Source: an uncultured Rubripirellula sp. (lineage in GTDB: Bacteria > Planctomycetota > Planctomycetia > Pirellulales > Pirellulaceae). Taken from it: a stretch of DNA of 64,000 nucleotides. Below are positions 12,553 through 64,000 of the stretch, in pieces (positions within the stretch are counted from its first letter, which is position 1; every line of letters starts with the position of its first letter). The position numbers and the translations under genes were made by a program. The notes under the pieces were generated by a model, which saw only the letters and a list, made by a program, of their open reading frames with translations, did not search any database and was not told the origin of the DNA. The stretch lies in assembly GCA_938075415.1 (NCBI GenBank), contig CALJHC010000026.1, forward strand, positions 180,039 through 244,038. The letters run 5' to 3'.

Positions 12553-13890
12553 CTAGCTTCCCGAATGCGTTTCTTGGATGGCTTCATCCATCAGGTCGAT
12601 GGCCGATTGAGCGTATCTCTCATACTGCTGATAGAAGTGATTCATGGATGCTTCATCCGAGAAGAAGAACATCCGTTGATGAATCGGATCTTTCATACCC
12701 CATTCTCTTTTTCCAGGAACGATTCGACGTTCCTCAAAAAATACCACCGCGTCAATTTCATTCAAAACGGGGGTGAATGGATTTGGGTCAGCTAGAAACA
12801 ACTTCATCTTCTCTTCACTTGCGAAGAGGTAAAGTCGGCCGAGATGAACAGCACTGATCTCTGGTTGTCCCTCTACCCACTGATCTTCGTCGATCACGCT
12901 TACGGGGCAAAAGCCATCCAGTGCGAGTTCTGGTGGTGTCGCGTTATCGGCTGCAGGGGCTTGTGCAGTCCCGTTACTTGAGGTGCTTTCCGTGTCAGGG
13001 GGCATCGCGATACCCTCCGCATTGGCAAGTTGAGAATCGGTATCCTGTGCCTTGGTGGAAAGGGTTGGCGATGATGCTTGATGGGTGACGGGGTCCTTAT
13101 GAAGCAGCAAAGTCATCTCGGTATCCGGTTTGGCCGAGCTGTCTGACGAAGCGGTTGCGGATGGCAATGCATCGTTGGGCAGTGTCAGGTGGTTTCCTTC
13201 GCTTGAGGGTGATGCGGTGGTCACCGAATCAGTCAGGGCAGATTCTTCGTCGGTGTTAGCTGGGTTGATCGTTTGGGACGGTGAAACAGGGATTTCTGAT
13301 GTTGCATACCCGGGTGGCGTAATTTCTTCAGTGGCCTGTTTTGAAGGCATCGCATTTTTGGTTGGTTGCCCGAGTGTGGCGTAGTTTTTCTGCAGAGGAG
13401 CCTTCGGTTCAGGATCCGGTTCTGAAGGGCTGTTCTCTGTCGCGATCTGACTCTCACTCGGAGACGCCTCGATGAGGGTTTCCATCGCATTATCCAACAT
13501 CTCGACAAAACGGGATGCGTCTTGTGGGCTTACTGAGTGTGAAATTGTCTTACCGGTGGAGGTCACGATGACATCGGACGGGAATTTGCTGACCTTGAAC
13601 ATCTCAGCGAGTTTTGGGCTGGTGTTGAGATCAACTTTGACGGGGATGAAATTTTCCTTGATCGCATCGCCGACCATCGGTGACGACAGGGCCCCTTTCT
13701 CGAGTTTATCGCACCAAAAGCATTGATCGGCGTAAAAATGCAGCAGCAGCGGTTTGCCTTGCTGTTGCGCCATGGAGTGGGCAGCGCGTAAATCCGTCTG
13801 CCATCCAATTTCCGCTTGGCTATGGGATGCCACTAAAAGCAGGATTACGATTGAAGCTGTGTTGCGTGCTGATGTACTCATTAGAGTCAT
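12553..13890 (-). CDS. Secreted thioredoxin-fold protein (CxxC) with a P/S/T-rich linker and a C-terminal domain of unknown function
   Basis: Start chosen at MTLMSTSARNTASIVILLLVASHSQA (signal peptide; ATG complement at 13888-13890). Thioredoxin-like motif HFYADQCFWCDKLEKG. About 150 aa of P/S/T/E low-complexity linker. C-terminal domain carries a DGFCPVSV motif. Confidence 0.65.
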   Translation of the reverse strand: MTLMSTSARNTASIVILLLVASHSQAEIGWQTDLRAAHSMAQQQGKPLLLHFYADQCFWCDKLEKGALSSPMVGDAIKENFIPVKVDLNTSPKLAEMFKVSKFPSDVIVTSTGKTISHSVSPQDASRFVEMLDNAMETLIEASPSESQIATENSPSEPDPEPKAPLQKNYATLGQPTKNAMPSKQATEEITPPGYATSEIPVSPSQTINPANTDEESALTDSVTTASPSSEGNHLTLPNDALPSATASSDSSAKPDTEMTLLLHKDPVTHQASSPTLSTKAQDTDSQLANAEGIAMPPDTESTSSNGTAQAPAADNATPPELALDGFCPVSVIDEDQWVEGQPEISAVHLGRLYLFASEEKMKLFLADPNPFTPVLNEIDAVVFFEERRIVPGKREWGMKDPIHQRMFFFSDEASMNHFYQQYERYAQSAIDLMDEAIQETHSGS

Positions 13891-14738
13891 TTTCCGGTGG
13901 GGGGCATCAAGAGGACCAAGTTGTTTGAGGCCGATAGAAGCCAAATGGAATCGAGAAATGTAGACTCGCTCATTCTCGGATTTCGGCAGTTGGTATTGTG
14001 CCGCTTGAGCCAAAACTACAGATTACGTCGACTTTAACGCTAGCGGTATCTGCGAAGTTTGCGTGCCAGGGCTGTTCGATGCGGCAGACTCGCACTTGAC
14101 ATCGCTTCGGAACCGCTTATATTTCAGACAGTTGCTTGAAGGTTGCTTGCGGATTTCGCTAGCAAATCCTCTCCAAGGACGTCTCGATCTCGTCCCTCTT
14201 CGGCGATGAACCCGCATCAAAAAACGCGTGTGAGTGCATCGTTACTTGGTTCTCCAGAACATTTTCGTTTTGATACTAGGTAGTCGGCTTGATTGATCGA
14301 GGCCGTGAATTGTCTGCGTGCTGCAGCAATTACAAAAGCAAGGAGCACAGTTTTTCCCTCAATATCTTGGCGAAAACGCCAAGCTGAAGGGTTTTGAGAG
14401 CACCAACCCTTTGATTTGGGTGGTCTCGTTAACACGAAGTCAAATTCATAGAAAAGTCACATTGGGTGGCCGTTACAGGTCACGGTTACGAGCAGAAATT
14501 CTCGTGACGAACCGTGTGTGGTCGTTCTTCCACACATTTTGAATAAACCCTGGTGGTTCGATTACCGCCGATCCGCTGGTCAGGGTTTCCATTCCATCAG
14601 TTACGGCGGTAGTTCTTCAATCTTGCTGAATCGAGGTAGAGAGTTTCTGGCAATTGAGATCAAGTGATCGAGGGTGATTTGCCCTGATTTGTTCGGTTTC
14701 AGCCTAATTCTCTTTCGATTTGGTCCTCTGGATGACCC

Positions 14739-16073
14739 ATGGCAAAAAAGAAACGGACGAATCGAGGTCGACATTCCTCTAATTCCAACGGACCGGGCTC
14801 AGGTTACGGCGGTGGAAATGGAAAACCGAGAGTGCGAAGGCGTCGCCGCGGCGGCGGCGGTGGAAATGGTGGAGGTCCCGCTGGCGGTAATGGTGGTTCA
14901 CACCAGGATCGCGAGGGAGCGGATCTGCCGAGCGATGCACCACTGGAGGAAGGCTTCGGAATCCTTGAGTTGCATCCCAATGGATACGGATTCTTACGTG
15001 GAATCGAGAATAATTACGCCAGAGAACGCACCGATCCGTTTGTCCCAGGAACGATGATCGAGCGGTTCGGACTTCGGCAGGGCGTGTACATCAAAGCGAT
15101 GGTCCAAGAAGCTCGGCGTCAGCAAGGGCCACGAGTTCGGGAGATCCTCGATGTTGATGGCATTAAGCCCGAGGAATATCCGGACGTGAAAAGTTTTGAT
15201 TCTCTCACCGCAGAGAATCCAGAGAATTGGTTGCCTTTGGAGGTTGGTCAAAAGCCATTGACCAATCGTGTGATTGACTTGTTGGCTCCGATGGGGAAGG
15301 GGCAAAGAGCATTGATTGTGGCGCCCCCGCGAAGCGGTAAAACGGTGATGTTACAAAACATTGCCCAGGGGATTCACCGCAATCACCCCGAGGTCAAGCT
15401 GATGGTCCTTCTGATCGATGAGCGACCGGAGGAGGTGACAGACATGAAGCGAAACGTCGAAGGCGGCGAAGTCATCGCCAGCAGTTTGGATATGGACGTT
15501 GAAAGTCATGTTCGCCTCAGCCAGCTCGTCATTGATCGAGCCCGCCGTTTGGCAGAAAGCGGCCAAGATGTCTTCTTGATGTTGGACTCAATCACTCGTT
15601 TGGCCAGAGCTTTCAACAAATGGGTTGGTAGATCGGGACGCGGTGGAGCCACCATGTCTGGCGGTCTGGACATCAAAGCGATGGATATCCCGAAGAAGCT
15701 CTTCGCGACCGCCCGCGCTTTCGCAGAGGGTGGGTCGTTGACGGTTGTGGGTACGGCCTTGGTCGACACAAACAGCCGGATGGATGAAGCGATTTTCCAA
15801 GAGTTCAAGGGAACTGGCAACATGGAGTTGGTTCTGGATCGAAAGCTAGCAGATCGACGTGTTTGGCCTTCTATCGACATCTCTCAGAGCGGTACGCGTC
15901 GTGAGGAATTGCTTCACGACGAAGAAACTTACGAGGCGATGACGATGCTGCGAAGAACACTCAGCAGCATGCATCCCTGTGATGCCATGGAGCAGTTAAC
16001 CAAGCAACTGAGTCGTTTTGAATCCAATGGCGAGTTCATTAAATTGATTAGCGGTGCCAAAGATTCTTTTTAA
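14739..16073 (+). CDS. rho: Transcription termination factor Rho with an N-terminal Arg/Gly-rich low-complexity region
   Basis: 444 aa. OB-fold RNA-binding region GFGILELHPNGYGFLRG. Walker A APPRSGKT. Q/R-loop region and C-terminal ATPase domain all align to Rho. Residues about 1-70 are K/R/G-rich (RRRRRGGGGGNGGGPAGGNGG). Confidence 0.95.
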   Translation: MAKKKRTNRGRHSSNSNGPGSGYGGGNGKPRVRRRRRGGGGGNGGGPAGGNGGSHQDREGADLPSDAPLEEGFGILELHPNGYGFLRGIENNYARERTDPFVPGTMIERFGLRQGVYIKAMVQEARRQQGPRVREILDVDGIKPEEYPDVKSFDSLTAENPENWLPLEVGQKPLTNRVIDLLAPMGKGQRALIVAPPRSGKTVMLQNIAQGIHRNHPEVKLMVLLIDERPEEVTDMKRNVEGGEVIASSLDMDVESHVRLSQLVIDRARRLAESGQDVFLMLDSITRLARAFNKWVGRSGRGGATMSGGLDIKAMDIPKKLFATARAFAEGGSLTVVGTALVDTNSRMDEAIFQEFKGTGNMELVLDRKLADRRVWPSIDISQSGTRREELLHDEETYEAMTMLRRTLSSMHPCDAMEQLTKQLSRFESNGEFIKLISGAKDSF

Positions 16074-16181: not shown

Positions 16182-16264
16182 GGAGGGTAAGCGAATTGGT
16201 GAGCGGCCTCACTGGAACTGAGGTACCCCGCAAGGGGCTGCGGGTTCGAGTCCCGTGCCCTCCG
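16182..16264 (+). tRNA. tRNA-Ser (anticodon GGA), type II with long variable arm
   Basis: Acceptor GGAGGGT/GCCCTCC with discriminator G. Anticodon arm CCTCA-CTGGAAC-TGAGG, with U33, G34G35A36 and A37. Variable arm CCCC-GCAA-GGGG. T arm GCGGG-TTCGAGT-CCCGT. The D arm does not fold canonically in my hand fold. CCA is not encoded. Confidence 0.8.
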
Positions 16265-16914
16265 CTTTTTTCAACTCGGGTCGGGCAATTGCTTGATTCG
16301 GGTTTTTTTATGCCATGATTTTTTATGGGTCGTATCCAATCTCTTTGGATTCAACGCGTGCAATCCGCCCTTTGCCACTCTGGTTTGCTTTGTTCATGCT
16401 GACAGTGAACTCATTTTGACACGGTGAGATGCTCTGACCCATCTGGCTAACGTCATTGTCCGATGGCATCCTCCGGATCCGATGGCGTGAGTGCATCGAT
16501 CTAGCCAGTATGGAATATCCCGAGGTTCACCGTATGGTGGCCGGCAACGACGAGCAGGTTTCATTGATGAATTTATTTCATGCGTGAGGTCAACTGATCA
16601 TCGTTGGCTGCTGCCGATTCAAATGCGATGAAGGTTCGGGCAAGGGGGATTGGTCGGCTAATTTGCCGAGCCTTTGGTTGCGGCAGCGAGCTTTTTTGGG
16701 GCTTTTGTGAAGTTGAAATTGAGTTGCGTTGATCGGGCTTGCCATCCTCAAGGGTCCAAAAGGCTTGGCTGGTTATTTTGTGAAAAGTGAATCCCTCACC
16801 GCTTTTTCAGGCGATCAAGATTCGGCCAGTGGGAGGTCGCATCTCGAAGGTGTTTTCCGGGTCGGAGATTGATTGTGGTTTCCTAGAGCTTGGTCTGGAC
16901 CTCTAGGTTTTTTC

Positions 16915-42051: not shown

Positions 42052-45000
42052 TTATTTGACTGGTGGAGGGTCCACGTCGTTTGCATCAACAGGTGGCGAG
42101 TCAAAGAGGTCAGGTGAGTTCGTCCGTCCTTTTTTGAAGGCCTGCTCGACTTGCGTGTAGTTTTGCATCATTGCTTCGAGCTGCGTTTGCAGCTTATCGA
42201 GGTCCCGACCGTTATCAAGTGATTCGGAAAGGATCGGACGCAGCCACTCTTGCATCAGGTGGAATTGTCCCTTCACCAAATCAGCCAGAACGCGAGGTAC
42301 TTTGTGTTGAACAAGCACCCGTTGTTGTGGAGGATCGGTGACTTGTTGCATCGCAATCTTTTCAAGTTCTTTTGATGTCTGGTGAAGCGATTCGGTCAGT
42401 TGCTCTGCGGATTGACTGACGCTCTGGCGGAGTTGTTCGACGCGATCATCCATTCGTTGTTCGGTGTCATGGGTGCCCGTCGCAATCGCTCGCGAAATGA
42501 CTTGCCGAATCGACTCGAGACCGTCTCGCATCGAAGCAAGTTGCCGCATGAATTGCCCCGCCTGATCTGAGCTGTCCATGCCAGCCATTCGCACGTTTTC
42601 GACGAAGGCGTACTTGATGGCATCCCAACGCTCTTTTTCGTCAGCTGTGATGATGCCCAGTAATTCTTTGAACTTGAGGACGTTTGCTTCGTTGTCAGTC
42701 GTCAGTGTTTGTGCATCTTGTTCGTAGGTGCTGATAATCAGCAATTGCAACTCGGACTCGTTCATCACGGACGCGACACGCTCCGCGATGCGATTCATAT
42801 TTCGATAACTTCCCTGCAGCTTGAAGGGAGGTTCGGTTCGATAGTGATCTGCTTGAGCAGCACTTTGGATGTAAGCTCGATTCACCTTGAGGACAACATC
42901 ACGAACCCGAAGCAATTTTCGCATCACTTCAAACATTTCGCGCACTTGGTCCATCGAAAAGCGTGATTGAAGTTCGAGGCCGTCCATCGAATCTCGTTCC
43001 GCCGCTTGGATCACGCTTCGAGCATCTGCGGGCGACGCTGTTGCAAGCGGCGCGAGACTAGCGTTGCTGGACAGGCAGTTTTCCAGATAGCTCATTTCGA
43101 ACGCTTCGGCAGAATCACCGATGATCTCACCCAAATTATAGACATCCGCTCGATTGGAGAGCATGTCAGGGACTTGGAATCGATCACCACTTTCCGTGTA
43201 GGGGTTTCCGGCCATCACCACCGCAACGCGGCGGCCTCGTAAGTCAAAGGTCCGGGTGCGTCCATTTCGCACGCCTTCGATCTTGCGGGTGGCATCACAT
43301 AGTGAAATGAACTTTTGAAGGAATTCAGGATTGGTGTGCTGAATGTCATCAACATAAAGCATCACGTTGTCACCCATTTCGAGTGCCAGGTTAAGGCGTT
43401 CCACCTCTTCCCTGGCTGCCGCGTTTGGAGCTTCATCCGGGTCAAGTGATGTGACCGAGTGCCCGAGTGCAGGGCCGTTGATTTTCATAAACACGATGCC
43501 AAGCCGGTTGGCCACGTATTCCATCAGGGTCGTTTTTCCGTAGCCGGGCGGTGAAATCAGTAGTAGTAGGCCCATGCGGTCCGTTCGCTTGTTATCACCC
43601 GATGCGCCCATCTGCTTCGCTAGGTTGTCTCCGATCAGCGGTAGGTAGACTTCATCCAAAAGCCGGTTTCGAACAAAGCTGGTCAGTACCCGAGGTTTGA
43701 ATTCATCAAGTCGCATGGAATGCCTTGCAGAATCCACGAGCTCAGATTTTGTTTGGTGAAGTTGTCTGAATCTAGGAACGTCCTGAGATCGATAAGAGCC
43801 GACTCGTTTCAGGATTTCGTGATAGTGCAGCGCCAGATCACCACGATTAATCACCGAGTGATTGCCCGCAAGGGAGGTTAGGGTTCTGGCAATTTCAACG
43901 TCAATCGGCTTGGAGTTGTTGGCACCACCACGGCAAACAAGCCAAGCCAGTTCGTCCCGGTAACCAGCAGCAAGATCAATTGATGGGCCGGAATGGTGAT
44001 TGTTGAGGAAAGCATCGATCCAGTTTCTGGCGAGGATAAATGCACGTTTGGGGTCCGCTTCCGCCTTCAGTACTTTTGTGAGCAGTTTCTCTCGTTCCGT
44101 TTCAGGCACTGAGCCAATGAATTCATTGTAAAGGTTGGCTGCCCGCTTGCTGACAACGAGTCGTTTGGTTGTCTGAGTCAGGTAGTCGAAAAGGTAATCC
44201 GCAATTGCGTTCTGGTTAATCTCCTTTTCAAACAGGGGTCGCCATTGATCGCCGTCATTGGCAGCGAGTTCCGTCAGCCGGCTGCGAAATTCAACTGCGG
44301 GTTTGGCGTTGGGATAAGCTTTGGCGAGTTTGGCGAAACCGCCGATCCAGTCCGTCATGACCTTGCGATTCTTGGCGTCAAGAATCGAATTGAACCAAAG
44401 GTTTCCGGCACTTCGCACCGAGGGTGGATGCTTTAGCATTCCAATGGAATGATGAATTTCCAGCAGGGTTGTTAATATCTTGAACGCGTCTTCGTCATGG
44501 ACACCCTTGGCATAGCCTTCCTCAAAACGACCACCCATTTGCTTTTGAACCCATCCGAGCGAGATCTCAGTGGAGGGTTGTTTCACCTCGGGACTGGTCA
44601 ATTGCTGGAAAAGTTCAACCGCAAGGTACTCACCGCGATAGACCGATGTGTTTTCGCTAACAAGTTCTTGAGTCCATAGATCGCGAGCGTCTGTGAGGTG
44701 CTGATTCTCGAGGGGTTCAAAAAACTGTGTCCCGGTGAGGTGCAGGCAGATTTCGCCCTCGCGAAGGACGGTGGTGAGGTCGAGCGCTTGGGTGTTGACC
44801 GCAAAACGATGCTTGCCAAGTCGAATTAGATCTCCGCCATCCTCATAAAGTTCTTGGCGATCTTTCAGTTGTCGAGTCGCATCCTCTCGAATGGTTTTCA
44901 CCCGACTTTGCAAGTCTTCAACTCGGACTGCATCCTCGAGTTGCTCGAGTTGCGCCATGATGTCTCTGACTTTTTCAACCATCAAGTCGCTGGCGAAGTA

Positions 45001-47355
45001 GGCTGCGATCTCGTCGGTCGTCTCCATTTTTCCGACGCGAGATTCGATCCCTTTGAGAATCCGGTTGGCGGCGGCGGTCAGTGATTCAGCGCGGCGATTG
45101 CGTTTTTCAATCAGGGCGACTTTTCGCGATTCAAACGCTGCGTAGACTTCTTCTCGACGTTGGGCAAGTTGGACAACGAAATCATCGAATTCCGCAAATC
45201 GTCCCTCAAGTTCCTCAATTTGAACCATGAGTTTGGTCAGGTAGTCATCGCAGCGTTGTGGTGAGTCGGATACATCGAGGTAGCCTGAGGTTGTCTGCTC
45301 AAGCAATTTTAATTGTGATGCAAATTCTGCCTGTCCTTCAACGCTGAGCAGTTCAGTGGTGCGAGCCTTCAGGGAACTTCGAACCCGATTCAATGACGCA
45401 AAGACGTCACCAATGGAATCAATGATGCCGGTTCGTTTGTTGGTGTCCTCAATTTTCAGATTACTAACCGTCTCAGTCAGTAACTCCAGATCTTGCCCAC
45501 TCTGTTCAATTGCTTTTTCAAGCTTTTTGGCTGCTGATACTGACTCGACCTCGGCAATGCTTTCAGAAATGGACTGAACCTTCTCTGAGTAAGGCTGCAA
45601 AGCAGTTGGATTCAGGAGAAACTCAACACATCGATGACTGAGACGATCAGAATGTTCGGCGGTTGACGTTTCTAGCGTCTCAATCAACTCCTCATCTGCG
45701 TATTTAAGTTCTCTGAGACCAATTGCGTGTCCACGCTGCTCTCGAAGTTGCGCGAGCGAGGAGACAAAATCACCGATAGCCTCGAAGCGACTTCGCTCTA
45801 TGGTTTTCAGAAGTTTACCAATGGTTTTCTGAACTTCATTGGTTCGCTGTTCGGTGTCACGCCGTAGACGAACCACTTTTTCGAATTCTTCAACCGCGGC
45901 GCTGGATGCGTCCCGAATACGGCTGAGAGGTTCAGAAAGCTTTTCGATTTCCTCTTTGTCAATCCAGAAGTAACTATCCAAAAGGTCACTGGTTTTACGC
46001 ACAAGATCGAGGTAAAGATCTTCGTAACTATCGTCCTTGTCGATAAGCTGAATGACTTCATTGCATTCCGCCATTCCGCCGACGATTTCTTTGTTGCCTA
46101 TCTTGAAGAGAAACGAGTCGGTTTGGTTATCGGAGACGTAATCAGAGCCGGTGAAAGGGGTTTGCCATATTTGAATAGCGTGATGCTTCTGAGGGTCATC
46201 TTGCCCCCGAAAACAGACCATTTCACCTCCCTCGAAAAACGTCTGTCCGTGGCAGACCAAGGGTGCGTCAACGGTTTGCCGGATTAGGTTGTAGCGAAGC
46301 TGGACATAGGTTCCCGATTCGGGGTTGTAGAACAGGTAGAGATAGTCCTCGCCGTTGGGTGAAGCGATGGTGCGTTGGTATCGCATGTCGCTCAGACCGT
46401 GTTCAAACCGTTTGAATTCGCCCGTTTGAAGGTAATATCCACCGGGGAAAATCAATCCATGATCGTTTGGCAGCATGACGCAAGCGTTCTCAATATCATC
46501 AAGACGCATTGCCTGCTGGATTTTTCCATTGAAAATCAAGTAACGGAAATCTGATTCCAGATAGGGTCGGATTTTCATCAGGACGAGATTGCCAACGATC
46601 GCATAATGGATCTCGGCATCGTCGAGTTGTTGGTCTGAGTTGTCGACCGACTCGGCATAGATCCCTTCGCCCGTTTCGGTATTGTTTTCAACCTTGATGG
46701 TGAGGTCACCGCCGACAGTTTCAACAAAGACTCGATCTTCGATCGAGATGTGTGGGTGTGCACCGTAATGGTGTTGATCACGGGTGGTCTTATTCCATCT
46801 GAATTCATGCTGAGCTGGATCGCGAACTTCATGTTCACTTCGGTTGTCGATGTATTCGATGGAATCGACGCCCATCCGCCATTTGAATGATTTGATGTCT
46901 TTGCTGGTTTTTCCAACTTGGAAAACCATGTGAAGCATCGGTCCGATACGAAAGAATCTTGAAAAGCGAGTGTTTTTGTAGAAGCGGTAAAGCTCGTTGA
47001 AGTCACTGGCAAATTGCTGATCACCGATTAGATCAAGCGGTAGATGGTGGAACTGACCTTCGTCGAAGCGATAGGTGGAAAAAACATCTGAGAGGTTGAT
47101 TTCGGTTTTCAGCCCAAATTGGACGTTGTACCCAAACAGGAATTGGTCACCGACAGAAACAATGTCACGCGGTACGCAGTTATGCTCGGTGTTGACTCGC
47201 TCGGTCGCGACCAGAGACGTATCGATGTTCCCGAAAACCTCAGCCCGGGATTCATTCAGTCGGCCGAGTCGGGCGCGCAGATCTTTCGCGGCCTCTCGCA
47301 ACCGATTGCGTAAGACTTCGTAGGTTCCAGCCGCGAGCGTTTTTGATTCCGTCAT
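42052..47355 (-). CDS. Giant (1767 aa) cytoplasmic coiled-coil protein with an AAA+ (AAA_5/MoxR/dynein-like) ATPase core; function unknown
   Basis: One uninterrupted ORF. Walker A LLLLISPPGYGKTTLMEYVANRLG (encoded around 43500-43560). Walker B NVMLYVDDIQH. Sensor-1-like VAVVMAGNP. Sensor-2/arginine region SNRADVYNL. Two long heptad-rich E/L/K/R segments lie either side of the ATPase. A beta-rich N-terminal region of about 450 aa. No signal peptide or TM. Confidence 0.8.
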   Translation of the reverse strand: MTESKTLAAGTYEVLRNRLREAAKDLRARLGRLNESRAEVFGNIDTSLVATERVNTEHNCVPRDIVSVGDQFLFGYNVQFGLKTEINLSDVFSTYRFDEGQFHHLPLDLIGDQQFASDFNELYRFYKNTRFSRFFRIGPMLHMVFQVGKTSKDIKSFKWRMGVDSIEYIDNRSEHEVRDPAQHEFRWNKTTRDQHHYGAHPHISIEDRVFVETVGGDLTIKVENNTETGEGIYAESVDNSDQQLDDAEIHYAIVGNLVLMKIRPYLESDFRYLIFNGKIQQAMRLDDIENACVMLPNDHGLIFPGGYYLQTGEFKRFEHGLSDMRYQRTIASPNGEDYLYLFYNPESGTYVQLRYNLIRQTVDAPLVCHGQTFFEGGEMVCFRGQDDPQKHHAIQIWQTPFTGSDYVSDNQTDSFLFKIGNKEIVGGMAECNEVIQLIDKDDSYEDLYLDLVRKTSDLLDSYFWIDKEEIEKLSEPLSRIRDASSAAVEEFEKVVRLRRDTEQRTNEVQKTIGKLLKTIERSRFEAIGDFVSSLAQLREQRGHAIGLRELKYADEELIETLETSTAEHSDRLSHRCVEFLLNPTALQPYSEKVQSISESIAEVESVSAAKKLEKAIEQSGQDLELLTETVSNLKIEDTNKRTGIIDSIGDVFASLNRVRSSLKARTTELLSVEGQAEFASQLKLLEQTTSGYLDVSDSPQRCDDYLTKLMVQIEELEGRFAEFDDFVVQLAQRREEVYAAFESRKVALIEKRNRRAESLTAAANRILKGIESRVGKMETTDEIAAYFASDLMVEKVRDIMAQLEQLEDAVRVEDLQSRVKTIREDATRQLKDRQELYEDGGDLIRLGKHRFAVNTQALDLTTVLREGEICLHLTGTQFFEPLENQHLTDARDLWTQELVSENTSVYRGEYLAVELFQQLTSPEVKQPSTEISLGWVQKQMGGRFEEGYAKGVHDEDAFKILTTLLEIHHSIGMLKHPPSVRSAGNLWFNSILDAKNRKVMTDWIGGFAKLAKAYPNAKPAVEFRSRLTELAANDGDQWRPLFEKEINQNAIADYLFDYLTQTTKRLVVSKRAANLYNEFIGSVPETEREKLLTKVLKAEADPKRAFILARNWIDAFLNNHHSGPSIDLAAGYRDELAWLVCRGGANNSKPIDVEIARTLTSLAGNHSVINRGDLALHYHEILKRVGSYRSQDVPRFRQLHQTKSELVDSARHSMRLDEFKPRVLTSFVRNRLLDEVYLPLIGDNLAKQMGASGDNKRTDRMGLLLLISPPGYGKTTLMEYVANRLGIVFMKINGPALGHSVTSLDPDEAPNAAAREEVERLNLALEMGDNVMLYVDDIQHTNPEFLQKFISLCDATRKIEGVRNGRTRTFDLRGRRVAVVMAGNPYTESGDRFQVPDMLSNRADVYNLGEIIGDSAEAFEMSYLENCLSSNASLAPLATASPADARSVIQAAERDSMDGLELQSRFSMDQVREMFEVMRKLLRVRDVVLKVNRAYIQSAAQADHYRTEPPFKLQGSYRNMNRIAERVASVMNESELQLLIISTYEQDAQTLTTDNEANVLKFKELLGIITADEKERWDAIKYAFVENVRMAGMDSSDQAGQFMRQLASMRDGLESIRQVISRAIATGTHDTEQRMDDRVEQLRQSVSQSAEQLTESLHQTSKELEKIAMQQVTDPPQQRVLVQHKVPRVLADLVKGQFHLMQEWLRPILSESLDNGRDLDKLQTQLEAMMQNYTQVEQAFKKGRTNSPDLFDSPPVDANDVDPPPVK

Positions 47356-47500: not shown

Positions 47501-47536
47501 GAAGTTCAAGTCGAAGTTCAACTTGAAATTCAGCCT
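47501..47536. repeat. 12-bp tandem direct repeat, 3 copies (GAAGTTCAAGTC / GAAGTTCAACTT / GAAATTCAGCCT)
   Basis: Read directly. It lies immediately 3' of the flotillin stop codon and about 145 bp upstream of the start of the giant ATPase gene. Contains a TTCGAA/TTCAAG-CTTGAA local palindrome. Confidence 0.75.
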
Positions 47537-49674
47537 CACTGGGTTGGCTTTGCTTTCGCTGCGGGCAGGCTTCCGCCTTGCGTCAGCAGTTTCCCTACCC
47601 TCTGGTCGGCAACGTTGGCGGTTCCCGCAATGCTCAGCAAGCTGGCAAGTTGACTACGGATCTCGTTGGTGTCAGCGAGTCCGAGTAGCTTCGCAATCAA
47701 CGCCGCGATGGAGAGGTCTTTCACTCCATCGGTATCAAGGTTGAACTGGGTGATGAGCTCATTGAGTTGGTCTTTGAAGTACTCAGCATTACCATCGAAG
47801 AACGTTTCTTTGATATCGGTAGCGACTTTACTGTTGTAAACAAATCGGTCGATGGCTTTACCGCCTTTGACAGCGGAGGTGATCTGGTCAAAGAATTCAC
47901 CGTCACCGCCAACGATATCGATGCGAGCCGCTTTGAGTGCATCCCCAACCACGCCAGCTTGGCTTTCTGCGATCCCTCGTTGGGCGTCAATTGCAGCGAT
48001 TTCAACTTCTTTTTCCTTGTCCAGCTGCAGCTTGAACTCTTCGTGATCTTTTCCAACGCCATCGAGTTTCTTCATGGCTTCTGCTTTCTCGGTGATACCA
48101 TCCGCTTCGCTTCGGTATTTCTCTCGAGAGACATTTGCTTCGGCCAAACCCTGTTTTTGGACGGCATCGGCTTTGGCTTCGATACCTTTCGCTTCGGCAA
48201 CGGCTTTTTTCTGCAGGACAGACGCCTCGGCGGTACCTTCTTTTTCAAGGCTGGTGGCTTTGGCTTCCTGCACGGTCGCTTCGGCTAGGCCTTCAGCGGC
48301 TGACTTTGCCGCATCAGCTTCGGCGAGCATTTTTGTTGCAGCCGTATCTTTTTCTGCGGCGTCGCGTCTGGCTTCCGCTTCGATGCGAATTTTTTCGGCC
48401 AGTAATTCGCTGGCATCTTTTTCAGCCTGGGCAAGCTTTGTCTGGCGAATCAGTTCTTCTTCGGCACGCATCTGGGCCGCGGTGACCTGCACCTTCTTGA
48501 GACGATCGGCAGCAGCAATTTCTTCGGTGTCTTTGATCCGCTCCTGTTCTTCAACCACGGCGCGTTCAACAGCAACTCTCTCGCGAATCACTTCCTGAAT
48601 GTTTCGCTTTTCAACTTCGATCGCTTTTTCTTTCTCGACATCAGCGACACCGACGACACGCAGCCGTTCCGTCATCTCAAGATCCCGATCTCGCTCAACT
48701 CGTTGGACTTCGACGGCATCGGTTTTTTCCTTGTTACGCATCGCGACAAGGACTTGGCGTGATTTGTTTTCCTCAGCAACACCGAGTTCTTCCTCGGTGA
48801 CGATTCTTGCTCTTTCGGATTCCAGTCGTTGCTCTTCCTCGACCTTCTTCGCGGCAGCCCGCTCGCGGGCCGAAATCTCGGTGATTTCGCGTTGCTGCTT
48901 TTCTACCGCTTCTACCCGTTGCCGTTCCAACGCGAGGATGGTTTCCTCCGCTTCGACATCCTGTTTTTTGAGTGTCTTCTCTTTATCACGCGTGAATTGG
49001 TTCTCTTTTACCTTTTCCGTCGCGGTTAACTCAGTGATTTTCTTGATTCCTTCCGCGTCCAGGATGTTCGAGGGACTCAGCATCTCAAGTGGGGTTTGCT
49101 CGAGGTAGTCGATCGCGGCATCGTCAAGCCGATAACCATTGAGATCCGTACCGATGACTTTTAGTATTTCTACTTTGAATTTGTCTCGTTGGTCATAAAG
49201 ATCAACAAAGTCAAATTGCTTACCAACGGTTTTCAACGCTTCGCTAAATTTTGCATCAAAAAGTTCTCTGAGTGTTTCAATTTCGCTACAGCGTCTTGCT
49301 CCGATCGACTGCGCAACCTCTTTCATCTCTTCCTGCGTGTTATCAACGCGGATGAAAAAGGCCACTTTGATGTCGGCTCGAATATTGTCTCGACAGATGA
49401 GACCTTCACTTCCCTGTCGGCTGATTTCAAAGCTCTTCAGCGTCAGGTCCATGAATTCATATCGATGGAAGAGAGGTACAATGAATTTGCCCCCTGCGGT
49501 GGTCACGTCCAGACCACCTAAACCTGATTTCACAATCGCGCGATCAGGTCCAACCACGATGAAGTATTTTCGGAAGGTTAGTAAGGCTGAAAAAACGGCG
49601 AAAGCGATCAGGTAGATCACAATCATCCATCCGCTAGTCCAGTCAAATGCTGCGAGGGGAATCGAGAGGGTCAC
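47536..49674 (-). CDS. Flotillin family (SPFH/band-7 domain) membrane protein with an unusually long E/A/K/R coiled-coil region
   Basis: 712 aa. N-terminal TM helix (GWMIVIYLIAFAVFSALLTF). SPFH domain (VVGPDRAIVKSGLGG..., YqiK/FloT-like). About 330 aa of EA-repeat coiled coil. Flotillin-type C-terminal domain. + strand Ser/Ala-rich ORFs inside are antisense artefacts. Confidence 0.85.
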   Translation of the reverse strand: MTLSIPLAAFDWTSGWMIVIYLIAFAVFSALLTFRKYFIVVGPDRAIVKSGLGGLDVTTAGGKFIVPLFHRYEFMDLTLKSFEISRQGSEGLICRDNIRADIKVAFFIRVDNTQEEMKEVAQSIGARRCSEIETLRELFDAKFSEALKTVGKQFDFVDLYDQRDKFKVEILKVIGTDLNGYRLDDAAIDYLEQTPLEMLSPSNILDAEGIKKITELTATEKVKENQFTRDKEKTLKKQDVEAEETILALERQRVEAVEKQQREITEISARERAAAKKVEEEQRLESERARIVTEEELGVAEENKSRQVLVAMRNKEKTDAVEVQRVERDRDLEMTERLRVVGVADVEKEKAIEVEKRNIQEVIRERVAVERAVVEEQERIKDTEEIAAADRLKKVQVTAAQMRAEEELIRQTKLAQAEKDASELLAEKIRIEAEARRDAAEKDTAATKMLAEADAAKSAAEGLAEATVQEAKATSLEKEGTAEASVLQKKAVAEAKGIEAKADAVQKQGLAEANVSREKYRSEADGITEKAEAMKKLDGVGKDHEEFKLQLDKEKEVEIAAIDAQRGIAESQAGVVGDALKAARIDIVGGDGEFFDQITSAVKGGKAIDRFVYNSKVATDIKETFFDGNAEYFKDQLNELITQFNLDTDGVKDLSIAALIAKLLGLADTNEIRSQLASLLSIAGTANVADQRVGKLLTQGGSLPAAKAKPTQ

Positions 49675-61715: not shown

Positions 61716-61789
61716 GGGCGTGTAGCTCAGTTGGTTAGAGCGCGTCGCTGATAACGACGAGGTCCCAGATTCGAGTTCTGGCACGCCCA
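61716..61789 (+). tRNA. tRNA-Ile (anticodon GAT)
   Basis: GGGCGTG acceptor pairing with CACGCCC, discriminator A. Anticodon arm CGTCG-CTGATAA-CGACG. T loop AGATTCGAGTTCT. 74 nt, CCA not encoded. The position is the standard rRNA spacer-type tRNA-Ile. Confidence 0.9.
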
Positions 61790-61862
61790 CTTAAGTTTGG
61801 TTAGTGAAAATTGAATTTGGACATTGCCAAGTCGGCTTTCACATGCCAAGTTTAAGGCTTCT

Positions 61863-61935
61863 GGGGGTGTAGCTCAGTTGGGAGAGCATCTGCTTTGCAA
61901 GCAGAGGGTCGTCGGTTCAAGTCCGTCCACCTCCA
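61863..61935 (+). tRNA. tRNA-Ala (anticodon TGC)
   Basis: Acceptor GGGGGTG/CACCTCC containing the G3-U70 wobble pair that is the tRNA-Ala identity element. Anticodon arm TCTGC-TTTGCAA-GCAGA. T loop GGTTCAAGTCC. One U-U mismatch in the T stem in my fold. Confidence 0.9.
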
Positions 61936-62679
61936 CTTGATTGATGAAAAGGTTACCTAAAGCGTTGGATCGCTATTGTCTGGCGGCCTTCCTAGTTTTT
62001 CAAGCAAGCTAATTGGTCTCTGATGGATTTCGAGCGTTGCTCGGCTTGATCGAGGCGTTAGATGCTTTCCGATCGCTTCGGAAAGAAGTGTTGAGTTTTT
62101 TCGTCGAATAACGTTTTGCCTCCTTGCAAGGATGTGATTCAGATGCGAAAACCTCCGCACAGTTGGGGCAAGAAGCCGCTTCTCAAGTTTCTGAGAAAAA
62201 AGCTTCTAACTCCGCTTGACGAGAGAAAACCTCACGGTTATCTTTCGCCCCTCACTCGGGAGTAACCGAGTTGGCCCTCAAGGAGGGTCTGCTCGGCTGC
62301 TCTCCAGCAGCGTCCCTTGAGTCATGTCCACAGTGGCATTTCAAGGCTTTGATCTTTGACAATTTGGTTGTTTGGTAGTTGGCATCTGAAAAGAAAGCAG
62401 TTGCTTGTCAACAGGCGTAAGCTTGTTGGTAGGTCTGCTAACAATTTCAAAGAGCGTTGCTGTAGGGTTGCCTTTCGAGGTTGCCTGAACAGCAATTGAA
62501 TTCTGAATAGGATTCTGTGCAAGTTAATGTCGACAGGGTGGTTCACTCGTGTTCCACCGAGAAGACATTAGCTACCATGTGATATCGTTAGATAGTAGAA
62601 AATCGACGAAATAACGTTCGGATCTGATTCCGGCAAAGGTTCTCCTTTGTTGAATGAAAGACTCCGAGTTCGGGATTTC

Positions 62680-64000
<1,321 letters not shown>

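Follow-up and report, generated by a model that had tools for sequence, protein, structure and literature searches.

The stretch of DNA analysed here (the window: 64,000 nucleotides of contig CALJHC010000026.1, from an uncultured Rubripirellula sp. of the Pirellulaceae) encodes a transcription termination factor Rho in which the N-terminal helix bundle is absent, and not merely preceded by an extension. A tail of about 70 residues, rich in Gly and Arg, stands in its place. The observation is real, but in terms of annotation the gene is routine, as this architecture has already been published as Rho subtype 2d or Group B. We consider it probable, though well short of certain, that the gene is a rho of this Group B/2d lineage, which is without the N-terminal helix bundle, and that its disordered tail has been kept by selection and acts as an RNA-capture arm. 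Rho selects the transcripts that are to be terminated and its N-terminal region catches the RNA first. The bundle, together with part of the pyrimidine pocket, appears to have been dropped by an entire order of bacteria that abound in the environment, which retains a short, conserved, block-charged disordered arm instead.

The body of the protein is that of an ordinary Rho. The NCBIfam model NF006886 (Rho equivalog) matched at 454.9 bits (cut-off 315), with residues 73-436 of the protein on positions 52-412 of the model, while the score for TIGR00767 (438.6) was under the cut-off of 509.45, a shortfall consistent with the missing N terminus. Pfam recognised Rho_RNA_bind (PF07497) and ATP-synt_ab (PF00006), with the extents and E values given in Table 1. 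In a HMMER search against solved structures, residues 51-416 of E. coli Rho aligned with residues 72-437 of the window protein (E = 2e-98), at 45% identity over the OB fold and the RecA ATPase, in agreement with the original prediction that the alignable Rho body would start at about residue 70. The AlphaFold2 (AF2) model could be superimposed on E. coli Rho with a root-mean-square deviation of 1.4 Å over about 374 columns, which cover the OB and ATPase body only. All catalytic residues are kept (Walker A K201/T202, E228, R229, D283 and the Arg finger R387), T344 and the R-loop residue R347 (for K326) are present, as is the Q-loop with a 3-residue insert, and K181R is the sole change in the bicyclomycin pocket. 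With an intact OB fold and ATPase motor, the protein can be expected to assemble and translocate in the manner of canonical Rho.

The Rho body begins at about residue 72, and the helix bundle of E. coli Rho (about 47 residues, 1-47) has no counterpart. The Pfam model Rho_N (PF07498) gave no match in the window protein even at E <= 1. An iterated hidden Markov model (HMM) of Rho_N, seeded with E. coli residues 1-53, found no match in it either, as against a bundle in 74 of 150 Rho representatives. The AF2 model has no secondary structure in residues 1-68; the first OB strand starts at residue 69 and no helix occurs before residue 104. We also considered the tail as a degenerate remnant of Rho_N, but a profile of 116 orthologous tails aligned with the Rho_N profile at an hhalign probability of 0.06%, and this candidate was rejected as far as sequence can tell. 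The open reading frame (ORF) starts with ATG and has an in-frame stop two codons upstream, and therefore it cannot be extended; the possibility of a longer ORF, or of a helix bundle in a shifted frame 5' of rho, was likewise rejected, owing to this stop and to upstream frames that contain nothing Rho-like. It had been proposed that the helical subdomain was substituted rather than supplemented, and Pfam, the iterated HMM, hhalign and AF2 all agree with this in finding no bundle. Nor does a bundle seem to have been overlooked in the orthologs: PF07498 was matched in none of the 120 closest clusters, all of which have PF07497 and PF00006 and are 78-100% identical to the window protein. Those named among them belong to Rubripirellula, Stieleria, Roseimaritima, Roseiconus, Rhodopirellula and Pirellulaceae.

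Positions 14739-14960 encode residues 1-74, of which the tail (residues 1-71) reads MAKKKRTNRGR-HSSNSNGPGSGYGGGN-GKPRVRRRRRGGGGG-NGGGPAGGNGGSH-QDREGADLPSDAPLEE. It contains 21 Gly (30%), 10 Arg (14%), 4 Lys, 6 Asn (8%) and 1 Gln (1%), with 7% hydrophobic residues, and its net charge of +8 is made up of +13 over residues 1-40 and -5 over residues 41-71. When 13,416 71-residue windows, taken from every open frame of 200 aa or more in the 64 kb, were compared, windows with at least 15 Gly and at least 8 Arg were obtained solely in the rho frame. No DNA tandem repeat was found under the tract. With an alignment of 80 diverse sequences (A4), AF2 returned a mean predicted local distance difference test (pLDDT) of 82.4 and a predicted template modelling score of 0.77, superseding a poor model from a shallow alignment (mean pLDDT 56.7); in the A4 model residues 1-60 average 37-46, against about 90 for most of the core. 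The charge-hydropathy boundary also puts the tail on the disordered side and the core on the folded side. For residues 1-71 intrinsic disorder is accordingly predicted, and composition, low pLDDT and charge-hydropathy agree on the Arg/Gly-rich disordered segment that had been proposed. Its description as an RG/RGG-like tract did not hold. The 71 residues have one RGG and two RG dipeptides and their Arg is clustered as R5 and KKKR.NRGR; the tail is therefore block-charged, with a Lys/Arg cluster and an Arg5 block along with runs of Gly, and not an RGG-repeat box. A long Gln/Asn-rich segment of the prion-like kind is absent from the tail. Phase separation and prion-like behaviour, both raised in the original prediction, are analogies where this tail is concerned.

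The tail is translated and selectively maintained, with a fixed polarity. The original prediction had argued that it must be translated, as initiation at the first internal Met would cut the OB fold. The Met had been misplaced, for the first internal one is M106 and codon 116 is GTG (Val), but codons 106 and 116 are both inside the OB fold and the argument therefore stands. The only alternative in-frame start inside the tail is a GTG at codon 32, which is not conserved. In 119 of the 120 close orthologues the tail follows a common layout of MAKKKR, a Gly/Ser/Asn linker, GKPRxRRRRRGG, a Gly/Asn/Gln linker and the acidic DAPLEE patch, with linkers that vary. The start Met is followed within 0-2 residues by KK in 114 of the 120; four or more consecutive Arg are present in 119, with GG within three residues after them in 118; and the final 15 residues of the tail carry a net acidic charge (-3 or more in magnitude) in all 120, as well as in 110 of 118 wider Pirellulales. 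The spacing ranges from 24 to 53 residues between Met1 and the Arg block, and from 14 to 35 between the Arg block and DAPL. The tract is thus fixed in position and variable in length, as the comparison of orthologs had been expected to tell. The reading frame is maintained across the variable Gly runs in 119 of the 120. At the codon level, we compared seven loci, the window and the DNA of six orthologues from different genera: codon pairs in the Arg block were identical in 68 cases, different but synonymous in 134 and nonsynonymous in 29, and the MAKKKR and DAPLEE blocks gave the same pattern. As the differences are mostly synonymous, it is the amino acids that are conserved and not the DNA. 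Among 20 sampled tails of wider Pirellulales a basic start such as MGKRKKGRPRGR is common, and across the wider Pirellulales set the polarity of basic then acidic persists.

Some orthologues (P0024, P0033, P0042-P0044, P0053, P0073 and P0103) carry a Met directly before the acidic patch (..MDREPAD..), where the window gene has Gln-Asp, and the database entry of P0103 (389 aa) starts at this internal Met. A tail-less isoform from an internal start is therefore a possibility in some lineages, not in the window gene.

Loss of the bundle is a trait of a clade and not a peculiarity of the window gene. When 1.84 billion representatives at 50% identity were searched exhaustively with HMMER, the 24 best-scoring clusters were all without Rho_N by the iterated HMM, and Pfam agreed for the ten tested; from rank 25 onward Rho_N was present in about half of the representatives. 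The nearest forms have N-terminal low-complexity regions of about 45 to about 500 residues, many of them poly-Arg followed by Gly/Gln-rich sequence. In a neighbour-joining tree built from the OB and ATPase core, the Rho_N-less proteins fell into a single clade comprising short-tailed Pirellulales, long-tailed forms from 'Planctomycetaceae' metagenome-assembled genomes (MAGs) and Verrucomicrobia forms. Beside it stand Rho proteins that carry Rho_N and have an initial region (P0147, P0160 and P0191, for example), and Gemmataceae forms (P0145) branch one node beyond these. When P0145, the best-scoring Rho_N-bearing representative, was used as query, there were no Pirellulaceae among its named matches; the few that carried names were Gemmataceae and one 'Acidobacteria bacterium' MAG. 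The long-tailed P0123 (662 aa) was examined as a possible paralogue and rejected, as its closest relatives are ordinary short-tailed Pirellulales Rho; its tail is therefore a lineage-specific expansion. In P0123 and P0398, of one Planctomycetia lineage, the tail consists of about 280-300 residues of tandem GYGDRQ(N/G)YGNY-type repeats, which are aromatic and Arg-rich and closer to known phase-separating sequences than the window tail is.

The sites that bind RNA have changed as well. The cytosine pocket is kept, E. coli F64/R66/D78 being F85/R87/D99 in the window protein. Two other positions of the primary site are substituted (L58 by H79, and Y80 by F101), and E108-R109-Y110 is lost, its segment being replaced by QQGPRV. 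In the structural literature on E. coli Rho, Y80, E108 and Y110 are assigned to the 5'-pyrimidine platform of the primary site, and this platform is not retained in window Rho. E108/Y110 are missing in all the Rho_N-less sequences tabulated, whereas both are kept in nearly all Rho_N-bearing ones, planctomycete forms included. In the secondary site the Q-loop reads SGRGGATMSGG in the window protein and SGK---VLTGG in E. coli. The insert is invariant in close relatives and its flanks are invariant in alignment A1, and the long-tailed forms are also lengthened there. With pLDDT below 50, residues 301-304 of this loop are predicted to be flexible.

The N-terminal domain of Rho is described as a basic surface that binds the RNA backbone nonspecifically (Moreira, Chyou, Wade & Brown, NAR 2024, PMC11347177). 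By analogy with the disordered regions of Mycobacterium tuberculosis and Bacteroides thetaiotaomicron Rho, the basic motifs MAKKKR..R.R and GKPRxRRRRR may serve at the rim of the hexamer as a flexible arm that captures RNA irrespective of sequence. Such an arm would take over backbone binding from the basic surface of the missing helix bundle, and it may compensate for the remodelled 5'-nucleotide pocket in which E108/Y110 are lost; the outcome would be a higher affinity for RNA and a wider range of loadable transcripts. Within the explanation we favour, an electrostatic RNA-capture arm in place of the helix bundle appears likely, and condensation, as well as autoinhibition by the DAPLEE patch, is plausible. 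Several points weigh against it. RNA binding by the tail is inferred only from its composition and by analogy. The tail has about 70 residues as against 150-300 in the characterised insertions, and lies at the very N terminus whereas those follow the bundle and precede the OB fold. Only close Pirellulaceae have the Arg5-Gly block, with four or more consecutive Arg in 0 of 118 wider Pirellulales, so that a role tied to the exact motif would be lineage-specific. The genome may also have a second rho, and the window copy therefore need not be the main terminator.

The last point leads to another explanation, in which the window gene is an accessory paralogue, the second and shorter Rho of a two-rho genome, acting in heterohexamers or in parallel, with a tail that only modulates the partnership. 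Multiple copies are on record in the Planctomycetes-Verrucomicrobia-Chlamydiae (PVC) group: according to the published classification, 30 PVC genomes have at least two rho genes, and twelve PVC species have two 2d copies that differ in length, among them Mariniblastus fucicola, a member of the Pirellulaceae, with two 'B-like' copies and no 'A-like' copy (PMC11347177). Long-tailed Rho_N-less forms, with tails of 190-500 aa, are moreover the sister clade of the short ones. However, the window gene sits at a housekeeping-like locus where gene order is conserved across genera, and its core, 78-93% identical across the family, is strongly constrained. The named long forms come, among the matches listed in a scan of genome contigs, from 'Planctomycetaceae' MAGs and are therefore perhaps orthologues of another order rather than paralogues. 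We regard an accessory paralogue as possible but rather unlikely. Much the same standing is given to the idea that the main job of the tail is RNA-dependent phase separation under stress, through coacervation of Arg with RNA gated by the acidic patch. The block charge of +13 followed by -5, with Gly spacers, would suit such a switch. In Bacteroides thetaiotaomicron Rho (BtRho) positive motifs bind RNA and drive RNA-dependent condensation while acidic motifs counteract it (Krypotou et al., EMBO J 2026, PMC13269538), and Moreira et al. predicted droplet formation for 2d regions (PMC11347177). The window tail, however, is short and poor in Asn and Gln, and a single Tyr is its only aromatic sticker, although one may speculate that the multivalency of the hexamer might suffice.

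The tail could also be a slippage-prone Gly/Arg-coding stretch that drifted in after loss of the bundle and has no function, and it is true that the lengths of Gly runs vary freely among close relatives and that the tail has a lower G+C content at third codon positions than the core has. Against this, 119 of 120 orthologues keep the order of the motifs along with the basic and acidic blocks, the Arg block has been preserved through synonymous codon turnover over DNA that holds no tandem repeat, and the polarity extends to the wider Pirellulales, of which 110 of 118 end acidic. Neutral filler is thus largely refuted, and we consider it very improbable. Least credible of all is an artefact, either translation that starts downstream or a divergent helix bundle that was missed. 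The annotation of P0103 from an internal Met, and the Met just before the acidic patch in several orthologues, would speak for it, but in the window gene such a Met is absent and the next one, M106, is inside the OB fold; both the element before the ATG and the MAKKKR start are conserved; and HMM, profile-profile comparison and AF2 all failed to find helices.

The explanation of the tail as a selected RNA-capture arm could also be taken further. In Pirellulaceae, Rho termination might proceed without any bundle-bearing Rho, and loss of the bundle, loss of E108/Y110 and a bipartite Arg arm gated by an acidic patch might together constitute a distinct RNA-loading module. This extension, which draws on the two 'B-like' copies in the sole published two-copy example from the Pirellulaceae, is doubtful in our judgement. 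If true, a module with altered rut-site preference and self-inhibition would be another way of choosing termination sites, going beyond an E. coli-type Rho with an added ornament. The arm itself, with about 70 residues and three motifs, would be a compact natural model for a disordered segment that replaces a folded RNA-binding surface, and is simpler to dissect than the insertions of 150-450 residues studied so far.

Table 1. Features of the rho gene and its flanks in the window, in order of position.
Feature	Position	Strand	Basis
Conserved element TCTGGATGACCC directly 5' of the rho ATG	14727..14738	+	TGGAT and AC invariant in 7 loci
rho coding sequence, 444 aa + stop	14739..16073	+	ORF list, NF006886, E. 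coli Rho match, AF2 fit
Tail motif 1, residues 1-11 MAKKKRTNRGR, N-terminal Lys/Arg cluster	14739..14771	+	Orthologue start counts
Variable linker 1, residues 12-27, Ser/Asn/Gly-rich	14772..14819	+	Met1-to-Arg-block distance 24-53
Tail motif 2, residues 28-42 GKPRVRRRRRGGGGG, Arg5 block then Gly run	14820..14864	+	R34-R37 invariant in alignment A1
Variable linker 2, residues 43-55, Gly/Asn-rich	14865..14903	+	Arg-block-to-DAPL distance 14-35
Acidic patch, residues 56-71 QDREGADLPSDAPLEE, connects tail to OB fold	14904..14951	+	D66 and P68 invariant
OB-fold primary RNA-binding domain, residues 74-143	14958..15167	+	PF07497, E = 2e-12
Altered RNA-pocket segment, residues 128-133 QQGPRV (E. coli EGERYF)	15120..15137	+	HMMER and pairwise alignment
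RecA-type ATPase domain, residues 177-384	15267..15890	+	PF00006, E = 4e-24
3-residue insertion G302-G303-A304, Q-loop of secondary RNA-binding site	15642..15650	+	E. coli alignment
tRNA-Ser(GGA), 109 nt after the rho stop	16182..16265	+	ARAGORN

The order of a thioredoxin-like gene, a leader of 0.6-1.2 kb, rho and tRNA-Ser(GGA) is conserved across genera, and this neighbourhood argues for a stable, housekeeping locus. All six related loci have the same tRNA after rho; in the window it was matched by ARAGORN only and was not listed by Rfam at the gathering threshold. A terminator-like hairpin with a T-run lies after it at 16273-16311, and in Roseimaritima (L086) a phage-type integrase gene comes directly after this tRNA. 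In 6 of 7 loci the thioredoxin-like gene is found next upstream of rho, and in the window (12553-14013, minus strand) it is transcribed divergently and encodes a protein (DsbH/Thioredoxin_7) with a long Ser/Pro/Thr-rich middle region. In E. coli, too, rho adjoins a thioredoxin gene, which may be a coincidence. The 725 bp leader of the window gene (14014-14738) is free of genes. A near-consensus promoter-like site, TTGACA-16-TATATT, at 14096-14123 would imply a 5' untranslated region of about 615 nt. Further down, a hairpin (14560-14614, ACCGCCG/CGGCGGT) is followed by a conserved GTAGTTCTTCAA box; covariation in the hairpin is weak, with one compensatory pair (ACTGC/GCAGT, in one relative) in 5 sequences and a z-score of -1.7. 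A possible role for it is autoregulation by attenuation, as for E. coli rho. While the remaining leader diverges, the element before the ATG, TCTGGATGAC(C/A), is kept in the seven loci from several genera; it holds an out-of-frame ATG and is a possible ribosome-binding or initiation signal.

Elsewhere in the window, tRNA-Ile(GAT), tRNA-Ala(TGC) and the first 1332 nt of a 23S rRNA gene are found at 61716-64000 on the plus strand, and there is no 16S rRNA anywhere in the 64 kb. As the spacer tRNAs are still beside the 23S gene, an unlinked rRNA operon is indicated; such operons are known in planctomycetes. On the minus strand, a 712-aa SPFH/Band-7 protein (47536-49674) has immediately downstream of it, on the same strand, a 1767-aa ORF (42052-47355) with DUF3686 ('ATPase involved in DNA repair', 641 bits), DUF7902 and an AAA domain. 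The two genes may be a conserved module.

Group B was reportedly first set apart by D'Heygere et al. 2013. The rule for subtype 2d, that Rho_N is undetected and the RNA-binding domain lies after residue 25, fits the window protein exactly, with its OB fold from residue 74 and its ATPase at 177-384. In the classification, which was drawn from 2730 genomes, subtype 2d counts 198 sequences, including 38 from the PVC group, where it is frequent, and is characterised by an undetectable N-terminal domain and a conserved ATPase domain (PMC11347177). The dataset includes Roseimaritima ulvae GCF_008065135, which is the assembly of our orthologue P0114. The available text of the article gives no description of the Pirellulaceae layout of MAKKKR, Arg5-Gly and acidic patch, nor of the accompanying loss of E108/Y110 or the Q-loop insert.

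Like the window protein, Rho of Mycobacterium tuberculosis and Micrococcus luteus (2b/2c) has a disordered Arg/Gly-rich segment adjoining the OB fold, and the HMMER alignment to M. tuberculosis Rho reaches into the tail (residues 19-438 of the window protein). Those proteins, however, keep the helix bundle and carry an insertion of 150-450 aa between it and the OB fold, whereas in the window Rho the bundle is missing and a tail of about 70 aa occupies the extreme N terminus. With no helix bundle to insert after, the window tail does not qualify as a 2b/2c insertion domain. In M. tuberculosis the disordered insertion raises the affinity for RNA and is needed for productive recruitment of RNA and for engaging structured Rho utilisation (Rut) sites; 1759 putative Rut sites were obtained with it and 47 without (PMC13650167). 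BtRho also has short conserved positive and negative motifs inside a disordered region, but this region is about 300 aa long, is Lys/Glu- and Asn/Gln-rich and follows an intact helix bundle, and for BtRho condensation has been demonstrated. Type 4 Rho (NCBIfam NF041509, 'Rho, short form') likewise lacks the N-terminal helix bundle, but short forms have the OB fold within 25 residues of the start and no tail; the window protein, whose OB fold starts at 74, scored 362.7 bits against the cut-off of 628 for that family. The low-complexity N-terminal insertion of Clostridium botulinum Rho is strongly Asn-rich and amyloid-forming, unlike the Gly/Arg-rich tail described here. With E. coli Rho (type 1) the window protein shares the core, and differs from it in residues 1-47, at E108/Y110 and L58, and in the Q-loop insert.

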